64,000 nt of DNA from Minisyncoccota bacterium (GTDB lineage: Bacteria; Patescibacteriota; Minisyncoccia; UBA6257; GWB1-50-10), in assembly GCA_041917695.1 (NCBI GenBank), contig JAYRXE010000037.1:2155-66154 (forward strand). Direction: 5' to 3'. Below, piece by piece: positions 32,887 to 57,574 of this stretch. Every line of letters starts with the position of its first letter. Within the stretch, counting starts at the first letter, position 1. A program made the translations under genes and the position numbers. Under the pieces are notes generated by a model. It was not told the DNA's origin. It saw only the letters and a program-made list of their open reading frames with translations, and did no database searches.

Positions 32887-33218
32887 TGTGGAGATGGTGG
32901 GAGTTGAACCCACGTCCGATGAGGAGCGTCCATGCGATCTACGAGCGTAGTTTCTGATTGCTCAGAGGAACGATATTCCGAACTGGATTTCTCGCTTTCC
33001 CTTCTTTGTCCGGAGGGTCCGGAAAAGCCAGCCTAAGGTATTACACCGGATGCCTCCTATTAGGCATCAGAGTCCGATGTCCGGAGCGTTACGCCGCGAA
33101 GGCGAACGCCGGAACTGCAACTTTGTTGTTGTCAGTTAGTGTTTGTGGCCGGAGTACGAGCGTGCCGTCTCGGCCCGCACGCGTGAGCGCTTTCTTACCG
33201 TCGAAGCCCGACATCCCC
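32887..33218 (-). ncRNA. ssrA: tmRNA (ssrA)
   Basis: 5' GGGGAUGUCGGGCUUCGACGG pairs with 3' CAUCUCCA. The T-arm GGUUCAACUCCC is present. The tag ORF ends ...VAVPAFAFAA-UAA. The gene is adjacent to smpB. Confidence 0.88.
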
Positions 33219-34897: not shown

Positions 34898-36517
34898 ATG
34901 GTACGGGAAAACATACGGAAATATATAGCGAAAACCATCCCCGCCGGGGAGATTTTTTCCGTCGATTTCCAGGAGAAAGACCCCCAGAAATTCGGCCATT
35001 ACGCGACGAATGCCGCGCTCCTTTCCGCGAAGAAAGAAGGGAAAAATCCCCTTGAAACAGCGGAGCGCATTGCGGAGGCTTTGCGGAAAGAGAAGGATTT
35101 TTTTGCGCGGGTTGAAGTCGCCCCGCCGGGCTTCGTGAACATGTGGCTTTCTCCGTCGGTGCTTTTTGGCGCCGTTACGGAAGCGCGGGGCCTTGAGGGC
35201 GCGTATGGCAGGAACGATTCGGGCGCTGGGAAAAAGGCCCGGGTCGAATACGTTTCCGCGAACCCCACCGGACCGCTCCACGTGGGGAACGCGCGGGGCG
35301 GGCCGATCGGAGAAGCGCTCGCGAAAGCGCTCGAACTTTCGGGCTACACGGTGCTTCGCGAATACATCCATAACGATGCGGGAAACCAAGTCGAGAAGAT
35401 GGGCGAAACGGTCTTTTACTGGTGCGAGAAGCTCCAGGGAAGGGAGAGCGCGTTTCCAGAGGGGGGATACGCCGGCGAATATCTTTCCGAGGTCGCCGGC
35501 GCGTTCTTGAAGCACAGCGGCGGAAAAGCCACGCGTGATGATTTGCATGCCATGACCGATTTCGCGCTCCGCTATATCTATGCGGAAAACATCGAAACCC
35601 TGAAGCGGATGGGTATTGCGTTCGACTACGTCGTGAAGGAGAGTGAGCTCATTTCGTCCGGTAAAACAGAGCAGGCTCTTGCGGAGCTCGATTCCCGGGG
35701 CGTTTTAAAAGAAAAAGAAGGCGCGGTTTGGTTCCAGCCGAACGACGAATTCCTGGAAGACCGCGAGACGGTTGTCCGCCGCTCGAACGGGAAGCCGACC
35801 TATTTCGCTTCCGACATCGCCTATCATAAAGACAAGTTCTCGAGCGGGTACGATCTCGTCATCGATGTTTTCGGTTCGAACCACCATGGCCACGTGCCGA
35901 AACTGCAGGCGCTCACGAAAATCTTCAATTTTCCTTCCGAACGCTTTTTTGTCCTTTTGTACCAATATGTGCGCCTCAAGCGGGGGAGCGAGGTCGTAAA
36001 GATGGCAAAGCGCGCGGGAACGTATGTGACCGCGAAAGAGGTGCTCGACGAGGTGGGCGCGGACAATATGGTTTTTTCATTCCTCCTGAATTCCCCGAAC
36101 ACGCATATCGATTTCGATTTGGAGGGAGTGAAGGCGGAATCAATGAAAAACCCCGTTTATTACGTGCAATATGCCGCGGTGCGCGCGGGGAGCATTCTTC
36201 AGAAGGCGAAAGCCGAAGGCGTGATACCGCTGGAAAACTTTACGAATCTCACGACGCCGGAGGACGAGTTTCTCATCCGCAAGGTTGCGGAATACCCCGA
36301 AGTCATTTTCGACACCGCCCGCGACTTCGAGGTCCAGCGCCTCACGCGGTTTGCCGTCGACCTGGCCCGGGGGTTCCATTCGTTCTATGAAAAGGAGCGC
36401 ATCGTGGGCGAGCCGGCAGAAATCGCCGGGGAGCGCATGGCGCTCGTCGCCGGGGTTTTGCAGGTTTTGAAAAACGTATTGGCGACCATCGGCATTTCCG
36501 CGCCGGACAAAATGTAA
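34898..36517 (+). CDS. argS: arginine--tRNA ligase
   Basis: SANPTGPLHVGNARG is the HIGH region, and a DALR anticodon-binding C-terminus is present. The product is 539 aa. Confidence 0.9.
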   Translation: MVRENIRKYIAKTIPAGEIFSVDFQEKDPQKFGHYATNAALLSAKKEGKNPLETAERIAEALRKEKDFFARVEVAPPGFVNMWLSPSVLFGAVTEARGLEGAYGRNDSGAGKKARVEYVSANPTGPLHVGNARGGPIGEALAKALELSGYTVLREYIHNDAGNQVEKMGETVFYWCEKLQGRESAFPEGGYAGEYLSEVAGAFLKHSGGKATRDDLHAMTDFALRYIYAENIETLKRMGIAFDYVVKESELISSGKTEQALAELDSRGVLKEKEGAVWFQPNDEFLEDRETVVRRSNGKPTYFASDIAYHKDKFSSGYDLVIDVFGSNHHGHVPKLQALTKIFNFPSERFFVLLYQYVRLKRGSEVVKMAKRAGTYVTAKEVLDEVGADNMVFSFLLNSPNTHIDFDLEGVKAESMKNPVYYVQYAAVRAGSILQKAKAEGVIPLENFTNLTTPEDEFLIRKVAEYPEVIFDTARDFEVQRLTRFAVDLARGFHSFYEKERIVGEPAEIAGERMALVAGVLQVLKNVLATIGISAPDKM

Positions 36518-36525
36518 CCGCACCT

Positions 36526-39500
36526 ATGCTGAAGAAGATAGAAAAATTCTCACTCCCGGACGTCGAAACGCGCGTCCTGGAATTTTGGAAGAAGAACAAG
36601 ACGTTCGAGCGCGCGCTTTCCCGCGGGAAAAAGCGGAAGACTTTTGTTTTTTACGAAGGCCCGCCGACGGCGAACGGCCGCCCCGGCATCCACCATGTGC
36701 TCGGCCGGGCCTTTAAGGACGTCGTTTTGCGGTACAAGACGATGCGGGGCTACCACGTTCCGCGGAAGGGCGGATGGGATACCCACGGGCTTCCCGTCGA
36801 GATTGAAGTGGAAAAAACCCTTGGGCTCAAATCGAAGCGGGAAATCGAGGAATACGGCGTTGCCGAGTTTAATGCGGAATGCCGCAAGTCGGTGTGGAAG
36901 TACAAGGATGAATGGGAGCGGCTCACGGAACGCATGGGCTTTTGGCTCGATATGGACCGGCCGTACGTTACGTATAAGAACGAATATATTTCTGTCGTAT
37001 GGCAGGTCGTGAAGGAAATCGAGAAACGGGGCCTCATCTATAAGGGGCATAAGATCGTTCCGTGGTGCACGCGGTGCGGCACCGCGCTTTCCTCCCATGA
37101 GCTCGCGCAAGGCTACCGGGAGGTTACGGACAATTCGGTATATGTGAAATTCAAGGTTGCGAGCAAGGCCTTTAACGACGGCACTCCCGTTCCGCCGAAC
37201 ACCTACATTCTTTCGTGGACGACGACTCCCTGGACGCTTCCGGGGAACGTTGCCCTCGCCGTCGGTAAAAAAATATCTTATTCATATATTGAGGTAGGGG
37301 ATGAGCGGTATATTGTTGCGACTGATCTCATCACGAAAATCTTTCCATCTTCGGAAGATACGGCTCGGAGCGGAAAAGAGTTCCTGGGGGAAAACCTTCT
37401 TGGTTTGCGGTACGACCCGCTTTTCCGGGTTAATTCTAAGGAATTTGAAAACAATGAGCGCGCCTTCACGGTGCAACCCGCAGATTTCGTAACGACGACG
37501 GACGGCACGGGTGTCGTGCATACCGCCGTGATGTACGGCGAGGATGACTACCGGCTCGGCGAGGAGCTCGGCCTTCCGCAATTCCATACGGTTTCAGCCG
37601 ACGGGCGTTTTGTTCCCGACGTTGAGGGTATTGCGGGGGAGAAGGCGAAGACCCCGGAGACCGAGGAAAAAATTTTCACCCATCTGCGTTCCCGGGGGCT
37701 GCTTTTCAAGATCGAGCCGTATGTCCATGAATACCCGCATTGTTGGCGTTGCGGAACGCCGCTCCTCTACTACGCGAGGCATTCGTGGTTTGTGCGCATG
37801 AGCAGCCTGCGCGGAGCGCTTATGAAGGAAAACGCGAAGATCAACTGGATTCCCGAGAATCTGCGCGAGGGCCGGTTCGGTGCGTGGCTTTCCGAGGCGA
37901 AGGATTGGGCGATTTCGCGCGAGCGGTATTGGGGTACGCCTTTGCCCATATGGGAATGCGACCGCTGCCCCGAACGGAGGGTCGTAACGGGGGATGCTGA
38001 TTTTGCGGAGCTCAAGCCGAAAAACCGCTATATCCTCATGCGCCACGGCTATTCCGAAAGCAATGCGAAAGATATGCTCGATTCGCACGGCGGCAAGAAG
38101 ACCTTTCCGCTTACGAAACGCGGAGAGCGCGAAGCGCGGGAAGCCGCACGGAAGCTCGGGAAGGAAAAAGTCGACGTCGTATTCGCTTCGGATGTGTACC
38201 GCGCGAAACAGACGGCGGAAATCGTTTCCGAGGCGCTCGGCGCCCCCGTGCACATCGATCCGCGCTTACGCGAAATAAACGTAGGATCGCTTGCCGGAAC
38301 GTCCCACCGGAAATTCGACGCCCTCCCCGAAAAACTGAAATTTCTCGAGGCGGTTCCGGGCGGAGAATCCCGCAATGATGTGCGCCGCCGAGTATACGCT
38401 TTTTTGAAGGAATGCGAGGAAAAATACGACGGGCAGACGATCCTTGTCGTGAGCCATGACGATCCGTTGTGGATGATGCTTGCCGTGATGAACGGCTGGG
38501 ATTCCGACGAGGCGATCGCGTGGGCGAAACGCAAAAAAGGAGCCTTGTTTCCCTTTGCGGGCTTTTCCAAAGCCGACTATCGGGTGATTCCCCGCGATGA
38601 ATTGGGGGTGAAGGATTACCACAAGCCGTATATCGACGAGATGGCTTTCCCGTGCGTGTGCGGGGGGAGGATGCGCCGCGCGCCGGAGGTCATGGACGTG
38701 TGGTTCGATTCCGGTTCGATGCCCTGGGCGCAAAAAGGGTACCTGTATGCCCCGAAAGCCAAAAGAATCGACCGTTCAGACTTCCCGGCTGATTATATCG
38801 CCGAAGGCGTCGACCAGACCCGCGGGTGGTTCTACACCATGCTTGCCATCGGCGTTCTTTTGGAGGCGGGTTCTCCCTATAAGACGGCGATGTCTTTGGG
38901 GCTCCTCTTGGATTCCAAAGGCCAAAAAATGTCCAAGTCGAAAGGCAACGTGGTCGATCCCTGGGAGATGATGGAGCGCCACGGCGTTGACGTTGCGCGC
39001 TGGTTTTTCTTCACGGTGAATCCGCCCGGCGAGCCGAAGCGCTTCGACGAACGCGAGCTCGTGAAGGTTTCCCGGCAGGTCTTCATGATTCTTTACAACT
39101 CGTTCGCCTTCCTCGATTTATACGGGAAGCAAACCGCGCGACGGAAAATCGTTCCGACCCACGTGCTCGACCGGTGGGTGATGGCGCGGCTTCACGCGAC
39201 GATTCAAGCGACTCAAAAGGCCATGGACGCGTATGAAATAGGGGACGCCGCCCGCGCAATCCAGGGACTCGTGGACGACCTTTCGCGCTGGCATATCCGC
39301 CGGAGCCGGAAGCGTTTCCAACGGCCCGTCTCGCAAAAAGACCGCGAGCAGGCTTCCGCGGTCCTCGCGCACGTGATGCGGGAGATCGCAAAGCTTCTGG
39401 CGCCTTTCACGCCGTTCTTCGCGGAGGCACTCTATAAATCCCTTTCGCAGAAGGCGTCTGATTCCGTGCATCTTGCTTCCTGGCCGGCGTTTGAGAAAAA

Positions 39501-40011
39501 GCTTTTTGACGCGAAACTCCTTTCCTACATGGAGGAGACTCGCCGCATTGCGAGCCTCACGCTCGCCAAGCGCGCCGAACTGGGCATCAAGGTCCGCCAA
39601 CCCCTTGCCGAGTTGCGCGTGAAATCCACCCTTTTGAAGGGCGTGAAGGCGAAGGAATGCCTCCTTATTTTGAAGGACGAGGTGAACGTGAAGCGCGTCG
39701 TTTTCGACCCATCGCTTACCGAAGAAATAACGCTCGATACGGCGATCACCCCCGAATTGAAGGAAGAGGGTTTGCTTCGCGAGCTTGTCCGCGCCATCCA
39801 GGAACTCCGTCAGGAAGCGGGGTTCGTACCGAAAGACAAGGTGCGCGTCTACGTTTCGGGCGCGGGTTTGGGGCTTATCGAACGCCACGGCGATTTCCTG
39901 AAGCGGGAAGTGAATGCGCGCTCCATCGAATTCCAGCATTTGGTGAAAAAAGCGAAAGCCGAAACGACCGTAGACCTCGACGAGGGCCACGCCTGGATCG
40001 GCGTCCTCTAA
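36526..40011 (+). CDS. ileS: isoleucine--tRNA ligase carrying an inserted histidine-phosphatase (PGAM-like) domain
   Basis: HIGH-type PPTANGRPGIHH, WAISRERYWGTP and KMSKSKGN. An insert of about 215 aa (37960-38620) contains ILMRHGYSESN and ILVVSHDDP. Confidence 0.9.
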   Translation: MLKKIEKFSLPDVETRVLEFWKKNKTFERALSRGKKRKTFVFYEGPPTANGRPGIHHVLGRAFKDVVLRYKTMRGYHVPRKGGWDTHGLPVEIEVEKTLGLKSKREIEEYGVAEFNAECRKSVWKYKDEWERLTERMGFWLDMDRPYVTYKNEYISVVWQVVKEIEKRGLIYKGHKIVPWCTRCGTALSSHELAQGYREVTDNSVYVKFKVASKAFNDGTPVPPNTYILSWTTTPWTLPGNVALAVGKKISYSYIEVGDERYIVATDLITKIFPSSEDTARSGKEFLGENLLGLRYDPLFRVNSKEFENNERAFTVQPADFVTTTDGTGVVHTAVMYGEDDYRLGEELGLPQFHTVSADGRFVPDVEGIAGEKAKTPETEEKIFTHLRSRGLLFKIEPYVHEYPHCWRCGTPLLYYARHSWFVRMSSLRGALMKENAKINWIPENLREGRFGAWLSEAKDWAISRERYWGTPLPIWECDRCPERRVVTGDADFAELKPKNRYILMRHGYSESNAKDMLDSHGGKKTFPLTKRGEREAREAARKLGKEKVDVVFASDVYRAKQTAEIVSEALGAPVHIDPRLREINVGSLAGTSHRKFDALPEKLKFLEAVPGGESRNDVRRRVYAFLKECEEKYDGQTILVVSHDDPLWMMLAVMNGWDSDEAIAWAKRKKGALFPFAGFSKADYRVIPRDELGVKDYHKPYIDEMAFPCVCGGRMRRAPEVMDVWFDSGSMPWAQKGYLYAPKAKRIDRSDFPADYIAEGVDQTRGWFYTMLAIGVLLEAGSPYKTAMSLGLLLDSKGQKMSKSKGNVVDPWEMMERHGVDVARWFFFTVNPPGEPKRFDERELVKVSRQVFMILYNSFAFLDLYGKQTARRKIVPTHVLDRWVMARLHATIQATQKAMDAYEIGDAARAIQGLVDDLSRWHIRRSRKRFQRPVSQKDREQASAVLAHVMREIAKLLAPFTPFFAEALYKSLSQKASDSVHLASWPAFEKKLFDAKLLSYMEETRRIASLTLAKRAELGIKVRQPLAELRVKSTLLKGVKAKECLLILKDEVNVKRVVFDPSLTEEITLDTAITPELKEEGLLRELVRAIQELRQEAGFVPKDKVRVYVSGAGLGLIERHGDFLKREVNARSIEFQHLVKKAKAETTVDLDEGHAWIGVL

Positions 40012-40023
40012 AATAGGGAAAAC

Positions 40024-40052
40024 AAAAACCCGCCGAATCGGCGGGTTTTTTG
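40024..40052. terminator. bidirectional intrinsic terminator
   Basis: aaaacccgccgaatcggcgggttttttgc lies between convergent ileS and rnj. Confidence 0.65.
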
Positions 40053-41747
40053 CTAGATCTCGATGACGACCGGCAGGATCATCGGCCGGCGCTTCGTCTT
40101 GTTGTACAAGAACTGGCCGATTTGGTCGCGCACCATCGTGCGGAGATAATCCGGATCGACCTGGTGGCCTTCGATGCGGCCGATGATGCCGCGGATCTTC
40201 CGGCGGATTTCGTTCAGGAAATCCTGGTTTTCCTTCAGGTAGATAAATCCGCGGGAGATGATATCGGGGTTTTTCAATGTCTTCCCCGTTTTCTTATCGA
40301 GCGTCGTGATGATGACGAGCATGCCTTCCGCGGCAAGCGAGCGGCGGTCGCGGAGTACGATGTCGGAAACGTCTCCCACGCCCAAGCCGTCCACCATGAC
40401 CGGATAGGCCGGTACTTCCTCGCCCGAGAGGCGGGCGATGTCCTTCGTGAATTCCACCACAAGGCCGTTGTCCGCCACGATCGTGGCTTCCGGCTTCAGT
40501 CCCACCGCTTCCTGCGCGAGCTTCGCGTTTTGGGAGCGGAGGAAGTAATACCCGTGGATGGGGAGGAAATGTTTGGGGTTTACGAGCTTCATCACCGTCT
40601 TCAGCTCTTCCTGCGGCGCGTGGCCGGAGGAGTGGATGTCTATCATCTTGTTGTGGAAGATGATGGCTCCCTGGCGGCAGAGGTTGTCCTTGAGGTTTTG
40701 GATGCTCCGTTCGTTGCCCGGGATGATGGAGGAGGAGAGGATGATGGTGTCACCCTTCTTTATCTGGACCTGCTTGTGCTCGCCGTTTGCCATGCGCATG
40801 AGGCTGGCATTCGATTCGCCCTGGGCGCCGGTCGCGAGGATGACGACTTTGTCATCCTTGTATTTGTGTATCTCGTCGAGCGAGATCATCGTTCCGCGCT
40901 CCGCTTTCAGGTAGCCGAGGCGTTTCGCAATCTCCAGGTTCGTCTTCATGGAATACCCGGAGGTCGCCACGTGTTTGCCGAGCTTTTCCGCGATTTTGAT
41001 CATTTCTATCAAGCGGTCGAGAAGCGAAGCGAACGTGCCCACGATGATGCGGCCCTTCGCCGCCTTGAAAAGCTTTTCGAGTTCCGCCTCGACGACGCGT
41101 TCCGACAGGGCGAAGCCCGGCACCTCGGACCCCGTCGAGTCGAGCATGAGGGTATGGATGCCTTCGGCGCCGACCTGCTTCCAGACTTCCAAGCCGCGCG
41201 GCTTGCCGTCCTTGTCGTAGTCGAATTTGAATTCGCCCGGGTGGACGATATTTCCCACCGGCGTGCGGATGATCATGCCGAATCCGTCGGGGATGTTGTG
41301 CACGACGTCAAAAAACGTCATGGCGAAGTTCTTCGATATCTGGCGCGTTTCCCCGCCGGCGACAAGATTGAAGACCGGTTTCGGCGCATGGGGAAAGTCC
41401 TCCAAGCGCTTCATGATCACTTCTTTGGTGAGCCGCGTGGTGTAAATCGTCGGATTTCCCAGCCGGTCGAGCAGATGGGGGATGGCGCCGATGTGGTCCA
41501 TGTGGCCGTGCGTAATCACGAGCCCTTTGATATTCGACTTTTTCTTCTCAAGGTACGACGTGTTCGGGATGATATAATCGATTCCCGGCGTTTCTTCTTC
41601 GGGGAACTGCAACCCCGCGTCAATGATGATGATCTCGTTTTCGTATTCGAAGAACATCATGTTCCGCCCTATTTCTTCCAAGCCCCCGAGCGCAACGAAC
41701 CGAACGACCGGCTCGTTTGAATGAGGCTTCTTTGTTATTTTTCTCAT
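40053..41747 (-). CDS. rnj: ribonuclease J
   Basis: VITHGHMDHIG, a beta-CASP domain and a C-terminal domain. The product is 564 aa. Confidence 0.9.
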   Translation of the reverse strand: MRKITKKPHSNEPVVRFVALGGLEEIGRNMMFFEYENEIIIIDAGLQFPEEETPGIDYIIPNTSYLEKKKSNIKGLVITHGHMDHIGAIPHLLDRLGNPTIYTTRLTKEVIMKRLEDFPHAPKPVFNLVAGGETRQISKNFAMTFFDVVHNIPDGFGMIIRTPVGNIVHPGEFKFDYDKDGKPRGLEVWKQVGAEGIHTLMLDSTGSEVPGFALSERVVEAELEKLFKAAKGRIIVGTFASLLDRLIEMIKIAEKLGKHVATSGYSMKTNLEIAKRLGYLKAERGTMISLDEIHKYKDDKVVILATGAQGESNASLMRMANGEHKQVQIKKGDTIILSSSIIPGNERSIQNLKDNLCRQGAIIFHNKMIDIHSSGHAPQEELKTVMKLVNPKHFLPIHGYYFLRSQNAKLAQEAVGLKPEATIVADNGLVVEFTKDIARLSGEEVPAYPVMVDGLGVGDVSDIVLRDRRSLAAEGMLVIITTLDKKTGKTLKNPDIISRGFIYLKENQDFLNEIRRKIRGIIGRIEGHQVDPDYLRTMVRDQIGQFLYNKTKRRPMILPVVIEI

Positions 41748-45045: not shown

Positions 45046-45933
45046 TTATACCAGCTGGGGAAGGAGGCTTTCGCCGGTCATATCGGCCGGTTTTTTTACG
45101 CCGAGTATCTCCAAAATTGTCGGCGCCACATCCGACAGGAGTCCGATATTTTGGAGCTTTTCCGCCCCTCCGCCGTTTTTCCGCTCAAACCGCTTTCCGA
45201 TGAGGTAGAAGGGGACGGGATTTGTCGTATCTTTTCCTTCAGGCTTTCCGCTCCCAAGGTCGAGCATGTATTCGAGGTTTCCATGCGTCGAGGTGATGAT
45301 AAGCGTATGGTCTTCGGCGAGCACCGCGCGGGCGATGCGGTCGATTGCCGTGTCGAGCGCGCGCACGGCGCGCGTTGCGCTCTCAAAATTTGCCGTTTTC
45401 CCGATGACGTCGGGGTTCGCGTAGGTCGCAGCGAGAAAATCGTAACCGCGGTCCGCAAGCGCAAGAAGGATGCGTTCGGTGACGGCCTCCGCCATCATTT
45501 CCGGATGTTTCTCGGGCTCAAGCGGTTCCCGCGAGGGGATTTCCACCCGGTACTCGTTTTCATACGCCGCCTCGCGCATGCCGTTCAGATAAAACGTGAC
45601 GCCCCGGTAGCGCACCGATTCGGCGATGCGCATTTGGTTTTTCCCCGCACCCGCCACCGCTTCACCCAGGTTTCCGCGTATTTCTCCCGATGCAAGTCCG
45701 TTTTCATTCGCCACCGCCCGTCCGGCGCCGATCGTCGCGTGCCCCACCTCGCTCGAACCCGCCGTGTCCCAGGGGAGCCCGATTGCAAGTCCCGACGCTT
45801 GAAGCGACCCGGCGGGAAAACGGGCTGCAAGCATATCAAGCGTTTTGGTGCCGGCAAGATATATCGGGTTCGATTCGTCGCGCTTTCCGATTCCCCAGCC
45901 GTCGAGAATGAGGAGAACACAAGTATTTTTCAT
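45046..45933 (-). CDS. short metalloenzyme-superfamily phosphoglycerate mutase-like protein (iPGM/ApgM-related)
   Basis: N-terminal LLILDGWG and C-terminal ITSTHGN. At 295 aa it is much shorter than canonical iPGM. Confidence 0.55.
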   Translation of the reverse strand: MKNTCVLLILDGWGIGKRDESNPIYLAGTKTLDMLAARFPAGSLQASGLAIGLPWDTAGSSEVGHATIGAGRAVANENGLASGEIRGNLGEAVAGAGKNQMRIAESVRYRGVTFYLNGMREAAYENEYRVEIPSREPLEPEKHPEMMAEAVTERILLALADRGYDFLAATYANPDVIGKTANFESATRAVRALDTAIDRIARAVLAEDHTLIITSTHGNLEYMLDLGSGKPEGKDTTNPVPFYLIGKRFERKNGGGAEKLQNIGLLSDVAPTILEILGVKKPADMTGESLLPQLV

Positions 45934-46054: not shown

Positions 46055-47578
46055 ATGGATTCCAGCACGCTTCTCGCGGTTGGCTCCGCGATCTTAGGGT
46101 TGGCGCTCGGGTACGGGGCGCGGTATTACCTAGCCCTCAAATCAAAGACTTCGGTCGAAGCTAAAGCGGGGGAAGAGCTCGAGAAAGCCCGTTCCCAGGC
46201 GAAAGAGATAGTCCTCGCGGCAAAAGACGAGGCGGCCGCCGTCGTTTTAGAAGTTCAGCGGGACGAACGGGAACGAAAAGCCGAGCTTCGCAGGCTTGAA
46301 GACCACCTTTTAAAGAAGGACGCCGCGATAGAGGCGAGCCAGGCTTCCGTCCGCGCCCTTGAAAAGCAGAAGCAGGACGAACTGAACCGCCTCGGCGAAC
46401 AAAAACGCGAAGTTGCCGAACTCCGCGAAAAAGCGCTCACGGAACTCGAGCGCGCCGCGGGGCTTTCGAAGGAAGAGGCGAAGGCCCGCATGTTTTCCGA
46501 GCTTGAACAGCACGCCCGCGAAGAGTTGCGGGAAAAAGTGATTCGCCTTGAGCGCGAAAAGCTCCAGGAGATCGAGGCGCGGAGCCTTGATATCATCACG
46601 TCGTCGCTCCAGCGGTACGCGCGGAGCTCGGTGAACGACATCACGACCTCCGTTGTGCATATTCCGAACGAGGAACTGAAGGGCAAGGTCATCGGCCGCG
46701 AGGGGCGCAATATCCGCACGTTCGAACGGCTTACGGGCGTCGAGGTGATCGTGGACGACACCCCTGACACCATTCTGCTTTCCTCGTTCGACCCGATGCG
46801 GCGCGAGCTCGCGAAGATCGCGCTTGAAAAACTTTTGAAAGACGGGCGCATTCAGCCCGCGAAGATCGAGGAAGCCGTCGAGGAGGCGCGCGAAGAGCTC
46901 GACCGCCACGTGCAGAAAGCGGGTGAGGATGCGGCGTACGACGTCGGCATCCTTGATTTCCCGAAGGAAATCCTCCATCTCCTGGGCCGCCTGAATTACC
47001 GCACGAGCTATGGGCAGAACGTCCTGAAGCACTCCGTTGAAATGGCCCACATCGCCGGCATGCTCGCATCGGAACTCCATGTGAATGTCGAAGTCGCGAA
47101 GCGCGGAGCCTTGGTGCACGATATCGGCAAGGCCATCGACCACGAGGTCGAAGGAACGCACGTCGAAATCGGCAGGAAGTTGCTGAAGAAATACGGCATT
47201 TCGGACGAGATTGTGAAGGCCATGGAAGCCCACCACGAGGAGTATCCTTTCTCGACTCCCGAGTCGTATATCGTCGCCGCCGCAGATGCCATCTCCGGCG
47301 CCCGGCCTGGCGCGCGGCGCGACACGCTCGAGAAATATTTGAAGCGCCTTGAGGACATCGAACGGGTGGTAAAAACGTTTGACGGCATTTCGCAGGCGTA
47401 TGCCGTATCCGCCGGCAGGGAAGTGCGCGTGTTCGTCACGCCGGAAAAGGTGGATGATTACGGAGCGCTCCAGCTCGCGAAGCAGATTGCCGCGAAAATC
47501 AAATCCGAACTCCGTTTCCCCGGGGAAATCAAAGTAATCGTCATCCGCGAGGTGAAGGCTGTCGAGTACGCCCGGTAG
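46055..47578 (+). CDS. rny: ribonuclease Y
   Basis: N-terminal TM helix, a coiled coil, a KH domain (GKVIGREGRNIRTFE) and an HD domain (LVHDIGK). Confidence 0.9.
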   Translation: MDSSTLLAVGSAILGLALGYGARYYLALKSKTSVEAKAGEELEKARSQAKEIVLAAKDEAAAVVLEVQRDERERKAELRRLEDHLLKKDAAIEASQASVRALEKQKQDELNRLGEQKREVAELREKALTELERAAGLSKEEAKARMFSELEQHAREELREKVIRLEREKLQEIEARSLDIITSSLQRYARSSVNDITTSVVHIPNEELKGKVIGREGRNIRTFERLTGVEVIVDDTPDTILLSSFDPMRRELAKIALEKLLKDGRIQPAKIEEAVEEAREELDRHVQKAGEDAAYDVGILDFPKEILHLLGRLNYRTSYGQNVLKHSVEMAHIAGMLASELHVNVEVAKRGALVHDIGKAIDHEVEGTHVEIGRKLLKKYGISDEIVKAMEAHHEEYPFSTPESYIVAAADAISGARPGARRDTLEKYLKRLEDIERVVKTFDGISQAYAVSAGREVRVFVTPEKVDDYGALQLAKQIAAKIKSELRFPGEIKVIVIREVKAVEYAR

Positions 47579-55750: not shown

Positions 55751-55823
55751 GCCCCGTTAGCTCAGTTGGTAGAGCAGTTGCCTCTTAAGCAAACGGTCCT
55801 AGGTTCGAGCCCTAGACGGGGCA
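55751..55823 (+). tRNA. tRNA-Lys (anticodon CTT)
   Basis: GCCCCGT...ACGGGGC-A. Anticodon loop CTCTTAA. Confidence 0.85.
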
Positions 55824-55963
55824 CACCGTGCATTTTATTCCAGAGCTCGAACCCGTATGGGGTCGGGAGCGGCGGAACGCTCCCGCGGAGGAATGCATGC
55901 CTGCGTAGGCAGGCATTGAAAACCGTGGGTTTTCAACTCCGTGAGATTGCCCTAGACGGGGCA
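55824..55963 (+). repeat. tRNA-Lys 3'-flanking structured module ending in a copy of the tRNA-Lys 3' end
   Basis: It contains hairpin gcatgcctgcgtaggcaggcat and hairpin TTGAAAACCgtgGGTTTTCAA, then CCGTGAGATTGCCCTAGACGGGGCACAC, which repeats the tRNA 3' end at 55811-55826. Confidence 0.7.
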
Positions 55964-56005: not shown

Positions 56006-56079
56006 GTCCTCGTAGCTCAACTGGATAGAGTACTTGGCTTCGAACCAAGAGGTTGCAGGTTCAAGTCCTGCCGAGGACA
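56006..56079 (+). tRNA. tRNA-Arg (anticodon TCG)
   Basis: GTCCTCG...CGAGGAC-A. Anticodon loop CTTCGAA. Confidence 0.8.
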
Positions 56080-56095
56080 CCCTATTCTCAGCCGT

Positions 56096-57574
56096 ATGAA
56101 AAAAGAAGCCGATATCGCGATTCCGCGTCCCGTGGTGGATGCGGCGAGCGCCCTTATCCACAAGGGCTATCAGGCGTATCTGGTCGGGGGGTCCGTGCGC
56201 GATATGGCACGGGGCATTGCGCCGAAGGATTACGATATCGCGACCGACGCCCTGCCGGAAGATGTGCTTAAAATTTTCCCCGACGGGAAATATGAAAATT
56301 CATTCGGCACGGTCCTCGTTAAAACCGGTTCAGACGATGAAACGGTAAAGATCCTTGAAGTCACCACGTTCCGCATCGAAGGCAAATACTCCGATTTCCG
56401 CCGCCCGGATGACGTGACGTTTGCAAAGACCATCGAGGAGGATCTCTCGCGGCGCGATTTCACGGTGAATGCGCTCGCGCTCGATCTTTCGCCACAGGGG
56501 AGCGGGGAGATCGTCGACCCGTTCGGCGGAAGAGATGATTTGGAAAATGGCCTCATCCGCGCCGTCGGGAATCCCGACGACCGTTTCACTGAAGATGCCT
56601 TGCGTCTCATCCGTGCCGTGCGTTTTGCCGTCGCGCTCGATTTCGCTATCGAGAAAGAGACCTTTTCGGCCCTGGTGGGCCGCGCACCGCTACTCGAAAA
56701 AGTCGCGAAAGAGCGCATCCGCGACGAGTTCCAGAAAATCATCATGACTCCCCGCGCTGCGGATGGCGTAGTGCTCCTCGAGGAAGCGGGACTCCTTCGG
56801 TACGTGATGCCGGAACTCCGGGAGGGAATCGGATGCGCGCAGAATAAGCACCATATCTATACCGTTTTCGAGCATAACGTGAAGGCGCTCGAGTATGCGG
56901 CGCAAAAGGGCTTTTCGCTTGAGGTTCGCCTTGCGGCACTGATGCATGACATCGGGAAACCTCGCACGAAGCGTGGGCAGGGAGCTGACGCGACCTTCTA
57001 TAATCACGAGATGGTCGGCGCGCGGATGGCGAAAGAGATTCTCACGAGGCTTGCGTTTTCCTCGGCAACCATCGAAAAGGTGCGGCATCTTATCCGTTAC
57101 CACATGTTCTATTACAACGTGGGCGAGGTTTCCGCTTCAGGCGTACGCCGTTTCCTCGCGCGCGTCGGGAGCGAGCATATCGACGACATCATGCGCGTCC
57201 GCGAAGCGGACCGCATCGGCAGCCACGTGCCGAAGGCGTTCCCGTACAAATTGCGGCATCTGATGTTCATGATAGAAAAGGTCCGGCACGACCCCGTGCA
57301 TCCGAAGATGCTCGTCGTGAAAGGCGACGACGTGATGAAGTTCCTTGGCATTCCCGCCGGCCCGAAGGTGGGTCAGGTGCTTTCCGTACTCCTTGAGGAT
57401 GTACTCGACGATCCCTCGCGGAATACCCGGGAATATCTTGAGCCGCGTGTCCGCGAACTCGGAAGCCTAACCGACGAGGAGCTTGTGAAGCGGATGCAGG
57501 ATGCCAAAGAGCGCGCCCGCGAAGCCGAAGAAGAGACGGAGGAAGAAATGAAGCGGAAGTTCAAGGTACAATAA
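56096..57574 (+). CDS. cca: CCA-adding tRNA nucleotidyltransferase with HD domain
   Basis: Pol-beta-like head GGSVRDMARGIAPKDYDIAT and HD motif LMHDIGK. This matches the absence of encoded CCA on most tRNAs here. Confidence 0.88.
   Translation: MKKEADIAIPRPVVDAASALIHKGYQAYLVGGSVRDMARGIAPKDYDIATDALPEDVLKIFPDGKYENSFGTVLVKTGSDDETVKILEVTTFRIEGKYSDFRRPDDVTFAKTIEEDLSRRDFTVNALALDLSPQGSGEIVDPFGGRDDLENGLIRAVGNPDDRFTEDALRLIRAVRFAVALDFAIEKETFSALVGRAPLLEKVAKERIRDEFQKIIMTPRAADGVVLLEEAGLLRYVMPELREGIGCAQNKHHIYTVFEHNVKALEYAAQKGFSLEVRLAALMHDIGKPRTKRGQGADATFYNHEMVGARMAKEILTRLAFSSATIEKVRHLIRYHMFYYNVGEVSASGVRRFLARVGSEHIDDIMRVREADRIGSHVPKAFPYKLRHLMFMIEKVRHDPVHPKMLVVKGDDVMKFLGIPAGPKVGQVLSVLLEDVLDDPSRNTREYLEPRVRELGSLTDEELVKRMQDAKERAREAEEETEEEMKRKFKVQ

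Follow-up and report, generated by a model that had tools for sequence, protein, structure and literature searches.

Why should an isoleucyl-tRNA synthetase (IleRS) gene carry, in the middle of its reading frame, the signature of a histidine phosphatase? The gene in question, ileS, lies in a stretch of 64,000 nucleotides from Minisyncoccota bacterium (GenBank assembly GCA_041917695.1, contig JAYRXE010000037.1, positions 2,155 to 66,154 of the forward strand), which we call the window and whose own numbering we use below. An original prediction, made from the sequence alone, gave the ileS product as 1161 residues long and placed an insert of about 215 residues between the peptides IWECDRC and DYHKPYIDE. 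The open reading frame and the positions of the peptide landmarks agree with this: IWECDRC is found at residue 475, RHGYSESN at 506, TKRGEREA at 530, VVSHDD at 641, DYHKPYIDE at 697 and KMSKS at 801, and the gap between IWECDRC and DYHKPYIDE is 215 residues. We lean, on balance, towards the view that this is a complete and competent phosphatase nested in an intact type-2 IleRS, and one expression of a partnership with class Ia synthetases that runs through the Patescibacteria. The features that define the insertion are the following.

36526-40011, + strand: ileS, type-2 isoleucyl-tRNA synthetase with a nested phosphatase domain; uninterrupted open reading frame of 1161 residues.
37957-37968, + strand: CP3 zinc knuckle, first cysteine pair (C478, C481); aligns with the CP3 region of Thermus thermophilus IleRS; in the homologue alignment A1, C478 is invariant and C481 is at least 90% conserved.
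38017-38613, + strand: inserted histidine-phosphatase branch-1 domain, residues 498-696 (about 199 residues); Pfam core at residues 503-663, nucleotides 38032-38514.
38653-38661, + strand: CP3 zinc knuckle, second cysteine pair (C710, C712); both invariant in A1 and aligned with the 'CAC' of T. thermophilus IleRS.

We located the insert by comparison with T. thermophilus IleRS (structure 1ILE). Residues 1-498 of the window protein align with residues 1-478 of 1ILE, and residues 697-1021 with residues 489-821. Hence, some 199 residues stand where 1ILE has about 10 (498-697 in the window protein, 478-489 in 1ILE). The flanking cysteine pairs correspond to those of CP3, which identifies the site as the CP3 zinc-knuckle loop. 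The CP3 subdomain of Thermus IleRS has a zinc-binding motif, and the topology of CP3 differs between IleRSs (PMC7191050). The coordinates first proposed for the feature (37960-38620, residues 479-699) enclose the insert, but the insert itself is narrower.

The insert is real and goes far beyond chance. Its G+C content (0.55-0.58) is the same as that of its flanks, and we found no repeats flanking its boundaries, neither terminal repeats nor a target-site duplication. P0001, a metagenome protein from an independent assembly, has 98% identity, insert included, and hundreds of independent assemblies show the same architecture. A frameshift, a chimera or an assembly artefact is therefore rejected by the continuous reading frame, the even composition and the recurrence. 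We also rejected an intein or a mobile element, since the insert lacks a Hint splicing or endonuclease domain, boundary repeats and a shift in composition. The only Pfam family found within it is PF00300.

This family (His_Phos_1) matches residues 503-663 with an E-value of 6.5e-38 and 130.8 bits, for a gathering cut-off of 21.7, and the excised insert matches it alone with an E-value of 3.5e-39. The predicted active site comprises the following elements, whose conservation was assessed in a comparison of 121 sequences with an overall identity of only 50-59%.

38041-38049, + strand: RHG motif, R506, H507 (predicted phospho-accepting nucleophile) and G508; R506 and H507 present in 121 of 121 homologues and invariant in A1.
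38200-38202, + strand: R559, second phosphate-binding arginine; 121 of 121 homologues.
38272-38274, + strand: E583, predicted proton donor; glutamate in 119 of 121 homologues, aspartate in 2.
38455-38457, + strand: H644, second catalytic histidine (VSH motif); 121 of 121 homologues.

The same set of residues (R-H, R, E or D, H) is retained in 97 of 101 copies when the 100 copies from reference genomes are taken together with the query. Nearly all of the 173 copies drawn from representatives at 50% identity also retain them, including every copy of the multi-copy proteins, and the exceptions are mostly truncated fragments. Mean pairwise identity is 0.46 for the insert, 0.47 for the C-terminal domain and 0.72-0.77 for the Rossmann core. 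The low value for the insert, with the catalytic residues held, suggests a scaffold free to drift around an active site that is kept. This pattern indicates that the catalytic residues are under purifying selection and that the nested phosphatase is apparently active.

The assignment to the histidine phosphatase superfamily, which had been proposed from the motifs, thus holds in profile searches, and the location upstream of KMSKS holds as well. It also holds in structure. A model of the domain alone has a mean predicted local distance difference test (pLDDT) of 84.9 and has a PGAM-like alpha/beta fold. Foldseek aligns it with a template modelling (TM) score of 0.70-0.75 and a probability of 1.00 to iPSP1 of Hydrogenobacter thermophilus (4IJ5/4IJ6), PhoE of Geobacillus stearothermophilus (1H2E) and CobC (6NRU). 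By sequence, the closest solved proteins are the same three: iPSP1 (4IJ5, E 1.9e-13), PhoE (1EBB, 1H2E) and CobC (6NRU). Across these relatives (for CobC including 6E4B) the root-mean-square deviation is 2.5-3.6 Å and the identity 26-30%, and all share the RHG motif, the second arginine, the glutamate and the second histidine. In contrast to the insert, which is nested in a synthetase loop, they are free-standing proteins of about 200 residues with known small-molecule substrates. They also differ immediately after the second histidine, where the insert reads 'SH-D/E-x-P' and they have 'SHGG'-like sequences.

The domain does not fall into a curated subfamily. It misses the cut-offs of dPGM (87-91 bits against 225 for NF038349, dPGM_arch; 38-45 against 81.7 for TIGR01258), CobC (86-89 against 162.9 for TIGR03162), PspA/iPSP (69-73 against 350 for NF045917; 33.7 against 277 for NF009994) and GpmB (68 against 261). 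For SixA (TIGR00249) it reaches 31.6 bits where 74.5 are required, with an alignment limited to some 70 N-terminal residues. Membership of any of these families, or of the RNase H/acid phosphatase family, was therefore rejected. The description of the domain as PGAM/SixA-like stands for its first half; the second needs correcting, as the domain is closer to iPSP1, PhoE and CobC than to SixA. In sequence and fold alike, the insert belongs to branch 1 of the histidine phosphatases, among the short members of the "phosphatase" type.

Is the host still a synthetase? The NCBIfam IleRS model TIGR00392 matches with 865.7 bits (cut-off 621.4) in two stretches on either side of the insert. Pfam likewise splits tRNA-synt_1 (PF00133) into two halves with His_Phos_1 between them, followed by Anticodon_1 (PF08264) at residues 882-1027 and DUF5915 (PF19302). 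The CP1 region aligns with 1ILE. Two short motifs delimit the aminoacylation site.

36685-36696, + strand: class I signature, read from the sequence as a non-canonical G-I-H-H (residues 54-57) replacing HXGH.
38926-38940, + strand: KMSKS loop, intact (residues 801-805); K801, M802, S803 and K804 invariant in A1.

The KMSKS loop is also kept across homologues, among which 'PGIHH' is the leading variant of the HIGH region. A G/AXHH motif is described for IleRS2, where it is linked to mupirocin hyper-resistance, in PMC10485003. We considered a strict link between this motif and the nested phosphatase, and rejected it: among the 80 insert-bearing proteins in which the motif is readable, 66 have G/AXHH, 13 the canonical HXGH and one HFGN. 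The insert-less partners mostly read HYGH at this position; one reads GVHH. For the full-length protein, an AlphaFold2 model from 64 sequences has a mean pLDDT of 88.7 and a predicted TM score of 0.80. In this model the insert is a separate alpha/beta domain bracketed by the CP3 strands, with 10-residue pLDDT blocks of about 77-97, mostly at or above 89. The core superposes on the type-2 IleRS structures 8C8W (IleRS2 of Priestia megaterium; Foldseek E 6.9e-85) and 1ILE. It is colinear with both (sequence E 1e-227 to 3e-228, Foldseek E down to 7e-85) and shares with type-2 enzymes the CP3 cysteines, KMSKS, the anticodon-binding domain, the DUF5915 C-terminal domain and the G-I-H-H signature. 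The difference lies between the CP3 cysteine pairs, where known type-2 enzymes have about 10 residues and this one an enzyme domain of about 199. Hence, the protein is a type-2 IleRS by sequence and fold, and its synthetase core looks intact.

The architecture is not peculiar to the window gene. In all 120 nearest homologues, PF00300 is accompanied by IleRS domains. The sources are named as Patescibacteria, Parcubacteria, Paceibacterota, Jorgensenbacteria and Minisyncoccia, and the functional names are only "isoleucine--tRNA ligase", "isoleucyl-tRNA synthetase" and "class I tRNA ligase family protein". We also scanned reference genomes, one per GTDB species, for a DNA pattern of the junction (WGTPLP-x-W, 25-35 codons, RHG). 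This revealed at least 120 loci; of the 120 examined, 100 have a match to the His_Phos hidden Markov model inside the IleRS reading frame. The titles of these 100 include many Parcubacteria (Nomura-, Yanofsky-, Jorgensen-, Giovannoni-, Falkow-, Magasanik-, Zambryski-, Lipton- and Colwellbacteria, Sungiibacteriota, Spechtbacterales and Paceibacteria), as well as Peregrinibacteria/Peribacteria, many metagenome-assembled genomes labelled Saccharibacteria and unclassified "bacterium" entries. Two are titled Gammaproteobacteria, and we suspect that they are mislabelled. Among the 20 negative loci, 18 have archaeal titles or titles of bacteria outside the candidate phyla radiation; the other two are L056, a Parcubacteria contig that ends a few bases past the match, and L085, an unclassified bacterium. 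The nested arrangement is thus shared by no fewer than 100 candidate-phyla-radiation species.

Other hosts, other loops and multiple copies extend this pattern. A full HMMER search with the insert against 1.84 billion cluster representatives returned 21,234 proteins at E ≤ 1e-3 and 2,530 at E ≤ 1e-10; we read the architectures of the best 150. In about half of these, the domain sits at the CP3 site of an IleRS or of a fragment of one, and about one-third are free-standing proteins of some 190 residues. When proteins were searched by word index with the insert or its profile, most matches were short and free-standing. Within IleRS, the domain also occurs in the loop that follows WFDSG (around residues 738-753 of the query) and in the loop before the anticodon-binding domain (around 866-880). 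Both sites are loops of lower confidence in the model of the window IleRS. In some hosts the domain is seen in the CP2 region. Tandem copies at CP3 are found in P0130, P0162, P0179, P0186, P0234 and P0261; these six belong to the wider set of proteins with copies in other loops or repeated copies, which also includes P0121, P0229, P0240 and P0266. Loci L013, L027, L032, L038, L049, L078, L081 and L118 show the pattern as well. Two embedded copies are present at eight reference-genome loci, five of them from Peregrinibacteria/Peribacteria.

Nor is the host always IleRS. P0229, a true valyl-tRNA synthetase (ValRS; TIGR00422, 873 bits against 612), carries the domain in the loop after WFDSG; P0240, also a ValRS, has two copies, and the ValRS-like fragment P0121 has four. 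In P0202 (689 residues), a true arginyl-tRNA synthetase (ArgRS; TIGR00456, 405 bits against 262), the phosphatase occupies the C-terminus, the form that read-through of an argS-phosphatase gene pair would produce. The copies are only 35-45% identical to one another and to the free-standing proteins, too divergent for a tree of the domains to be informative on the number of insertion events. The nested IleRS architecture is conserved in Patescibacteria, and the same type of domain is also found in ValRS, in ArgRS and as a separate gene beside ileS.

Related histidine phosphatases occur in other fusions as well. P0362 (343 residues, Moraniibacteriota) joins one to a PF08719 (DUF1768/NADAR-type) domain, P0232 to a QueC/QatC-like PP-loop domain and P0207 to a class II aldolase-like domain. 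These three are probably unrelated to the association with synthetases; P0232 and P0207 look like generic members of the family, and we did not retain them as part of it.

The separate gene is best seen in the neighbourhoods of eight of the closest free-standing relatives, a sample found by searching for the phosphatase. In seven of the eight, the gene is directly 5' of an insert-less ileS or one small gene away. For example, P0272 lies between argS and an insert-less ileS (941 residues), 3 nucleotides past the former and overlapping the latter by 4 (L001/L002); the empty site in the L001 IleRS is a loop of four residues between the same CP3 elements as in the window protein. P0271 overlaps the start of an ileS and P0270 sits 113 nucleotides upstream of one. 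P0307, P0309, P0317 and P0329 are each upstream of an insert-less ileS (961-969 residues), directly or one small gene away, with argS further upstream in three of the four. The eighth, the archaeal P0273, has no ileS context, and three more distant members of the family (E 1e-14 to 3e-10) have unrelated neighbourhoods. None of the 100 insert-bearing loci has a free-standing copy of the phosphatase. The upstream region can be seen in 60 of these loci, and in 20 of the 60 argS abuts the insert-bearing ileS. The window shows the same order, and outside ileS it holds no other His_Phos match.

34898-36517, + strand: argS, ArgRS of 539 residues without a phosphatase domain (PF03485, PF00750, PF05746); ends 8 nucleotides before ileS.

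In one Moranbacteria genome (GCA_030648835.1, locus L132) a HIT-family gene (PF01230/PF11969; 5611-6063) stands between the free-standing phosphatase and ileS. We rejected it as a regular neighbour, since it is found beside ileS only there, in one of 132 loci.

The phosphatase thus takes three forms: it is encoded on its own beside ileS, it makes up a tail of ArgRS, or it is nested as a domain within IleRS or ValRS. The occurrence of separate, end-fused and nested forms is a classic signature of functional coupling, and makes this a natural "Rosetta stone" case.

How does this arrangement compare with known ones? Aminoacyl-tRNA synthetases count among the best-studied enzymes and, to our knowledge, their accessory domains in bacteria are almost all tRNA-binding or editing modules. 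The class Ia insertions (the CP1 editing domain, CP2 and CP3, and the leucine-specific domain of LeuRS) are similar in that a separately folding domain is inserted in the Rossmann fold through a two-strand connection. However, CP1 is universal and hydrolyses the ester bonds of mis-acylated tRNA, while the insert is predicted to have phosphomonoesterase chemistry and, in this survey, is essentially confined to genomes labelled Patescibacteria or unclassified. The curated family NF040702 (ileS_w_GNAT) also consists of IleRSs with an extra enzymatic domain, but that domain is a GNAT and not a histidine phosphatase. The window protein misses its cut-off (311.8 bits against 1999) and matches through the IleRS parts only, and Pfam finds no acetyltransferase domain in it. 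Proteins of the RNase H/acid phosphatase type (NF005567, as Rv2228c) join a nucleic-acid enzyme to a CobC-like branch-1 phosphatase, and are among the best NCBIfam matches of the insert (82-86 bits). Yet their fusion is end-to-end, the partner is RNase HI, and the insert misses the cut-off of 326 bits. Finally, the CCA-adding enzyme carries a phosphoesterase/phosphatase module, the HD domain, on an enzyme of the tRNA 3' end, and this domain probably heals damaged tRNA ends. It differs in its unrelated fold, its metal-dependent chemistry and its end-to-end attachment.

The literature we searched, whose coverage leaves out most subscription journals, contains no description of an aminoacyl-tRNA synthetase with a phosphatase module, in line with the claim of the original prediction that none is known. 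The papers on IleRS evolution that we consulted make no mention of Patescibacteria, and a 2026 preprint among them makes none of a phosphatase. Insert-bearing sequences are already public with precomputed Pfam matches. Hence, type-2 IleRSs, branch-1 phosphatases and extra domains in synthetases were all known, and it is their combination that is apparently undescribed.

What might the phosphatase do there? In the reading that we favour, it would be a phosphomonoesterase acting through a phospho-histidine intermediate on H507, seated on the tip of CP3, the zinc-knuckle subdomain, in a type-2 IleRS that is otherwise intact. The same partnership would take the form of a gene upstream of ileS (often in the order argS-phosphatase-ileS), of a C-terminal fusion to ArgRS, or of domains in surface loops of IleRS and ValRS. 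We infer that phosphatase and synthetase work together. The use of several different loops and of a terminus suggests that tethering matters more than precise geometry.

As to the substrate, our tentative preference, itself rather doubtful, is that the domain would strip a 2'/3'-phosphate or pyrophosphate that blocks the acceptor end of the tRNA, and so allow charging. Such a terminal group, left by nuclease or toxin damage, would be removed and the bound tRNA would then be charged, which would amount to end-healing coupled to aminoacylation. Every host enzyme binds tRNA, and there is a precedent for a tRNA-end phosphatase on a tRNA enzyme in the HD domain of the CCA-adding enzyme. A somewhat broader version, which we put forward as a tentative proposal, is that the nested phosphatase is a built-in module of translation repair or immunity, clearing phosphate or pyrophosphate groups left on the tRNA 3' end by toxins or nucleases, or placed on the synthetase by kinases.

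Several observations weigh against the favoured reading or its tRNA-end version. The closest solved relatives are small-molecule phosphatases with, on our own reading of the cap, a cap region of normal size, and we know of no histidine phosphatase that acts on RNA ends. The embedded domains have no consistent basic charge (interquartile range of the isoelectric point 5.4-8.9). The distance to the acceptor-end pocket varies widely between insertion sites, which include the loop ahead of the anticodon-binding domain and the ArgRS C-terminus. The window already holds a gene for a CCA-adding enzyme of the HD-domain kind, and the HD domain of the E. coli enzyme has tRNA-end phosphatase activity; a tRNA-end function of the insert might therefore be redundant. 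The adjacency of the genes could also result from the conserved order of housekeeping genes alone, without functional coupling. In this respect, the neighbourhood sample was selected through the phosphatase, and the share of insert-less Patescibacteria ileS genes that lack such a neighbour lies outside it.

Among the competing explanations, the domain could be a phosphatase of small molecules or nucleotides, acting on a nucleotide linked to adenylation (AMP, a 2'/3'-nucleotide, or a product of the breakdown of Ap4A or of aminoacyl-adenylates) and tethered so as to be placed at its source. We consider this unlikely. The nearest structures and profiles are indeed phosphomonoesterases of small molecules, including CobC, whose substrate alpha-ribazole-5'-phosphate is nucleotide-like, and the broad-specificity PhoE, and all the host enzymes use up ATP and give off AMP. 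The HIT-family gene of the Moranbacteria genome would fit this function, as HIT proteins are hydrolases of adenylated compounds, but it is a neighbour in that one locus out of 132. Moreover, no subfamily cut-off is reached, the hydrolysis of AMP would be wasteful for organisms that depend on salvage, and small molecules diffuse, leaving the repeated nesting in an essential enzyme without obvious benefit. It is more improbable that the domain is a metabolic hitch-hiker, i.e. an ordinary phosphatase or mutase (a phosphoserine phosphatase or dPGM, for example) fused to its neighbours in compact genomes and uncoupled from aminoacylation. The top NCBIfam matches are dPGM_arch, CobC and PspA, the argS-ileS-recO region is a conserved housekeeping block, and the 21,234 representatives in the wider search show how abundant free-standing members are. 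However, the scores for these three families are all far below their curated cut-offs, and read-through yields end-to-end fusions rather than nesting in internal loops of two paralogous synthetases or up to four copies. An insertion into an essential enzyme carries a risk, and still this one persists in at least 100 species. Elsewhere in the window there is a gene for a short relative of cofactor-independent phosphoglycerate mutase, a weak sign that this activity is supplied elsewhere.

Two further explanations keep the link with the synthetase and change its nature. The domain may be a protein phosphatase that protects its own host by removing an inhibitory phosphorylation, placed by a toxin or a regulatory kinase, for example at the KMSKS loop. 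Action on the host itself would explain why tethering matters and the exact loop does not. The histidine phosphatase superfamily includes the protein phosphatases PGAM5, Sts-1 and SixA, and kinases of the HipA family inactivate GltX and TrpS by phosphorylating their ATP-binding loops. Nevertheless, IleRS, ValRS and ArgRS are not known kinase targets and the domain is closer to small-molecule phosphatases than to SixA, so we hold this to be less probable still. We give very little weight to a non-catalytic or sensor module that would bind a phospho-ligand or a tRNA phosphate, or adopt a phospho-histidine state, and tune aminoacylation allosterically. Nesting next to the second Rossmann half is a common layout for allosteric control and the phosphate-binding residues are conserved, but the nucleophilic histidine and the acid/base glutamate are as strictly kept as the binding arginines, pointing to catalysis, and the variety of loops and copies fits poorly with one specific allosteric pathway. 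Last, the spread of copies over several sites bears a superficial likeness to mobile insertions. There is nonetheless practically no chance that the insert stems from a frameshift or a chimeric assembly, or is an element of intein or transposon type that serves no host function, given the continuous frame, uniform composition and wide recurrence, the lack of a Hint or endonuclease domain and of boundary repeats, and the selection acting on the catalytic residues.

The favoured reading, a competent phosphatase partnered with class Ia synthetases, has several consequences. It places a second, chemically unrelated enzyme with an intact predicted active site inside the catalytic domain of a synthetase, recurring in IleRS, ValRS and ArgRS. 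It would imply an unrecognised step of phosphate removal linked to tRNA charging in bacteria with reduced genomes that are often host-dependent. If the repair or immunity version were true, a defence against poisoning would be built into several class Ia synthetases of the Patescibacteria. The domain would then represent a new functional class of synthetase accessory domain, and the first role of a branch-1 histidine phosphatase directed at RNA or at a synthetase. CP3 and other surface loops of synthetases accept a whole enzyme of 200 residues, which is of use for their engineering. In addition, the annotation names "isoleucine--tRNA ligase" and "class I tRNA ligase family protein" hide the second activity.

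The rest of the window is rich in genes of RNA metabolism. Its other features are the following.

330-1697, + strand: dnaA (DnaA_N, Bac_DnaA, Bac_DnaA_C).
32888-33218, - strand: tmRNA, with tag DNNKVAVPAFAFAA.
40053-41747, - strand: RNase J.
45046-45933, - strand: Metalloenzyme-superfamily protein of 294 residues; TIGR01307 248 bits against a cut-off of 330.65, with only the N- and C-terminal parts matching.
46055-47578, + strand: RNase Y.
55751-55824: tRNA-Lys, just upstream of the CCA-adding enzyme gene.
56006-56081: tRNA-Arg, just upstream of the CCA-adding enzyme gene.
56096-57574, + strand: CCA-adding enzyme/poly(A) polymerase family protein with HD domain, directly after the two tRNA genes.

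The 294-residue protein looks, from its partial match, like a short form of cofactor-independent phosphoglycerate mutase without the middle domain. Long open reading frames also run antisense to real genes, among them one of 556 residues opposite RNase J (40050-41720, + strand) and one inside ileS (39118-39990, - strand). Their translations are of low complexity and rich in Asp, Arg and His, and they are almost certainly not genes. The position of dnaA at the start of the window suggests that the latter probably begins near the chromosomal replication origin.

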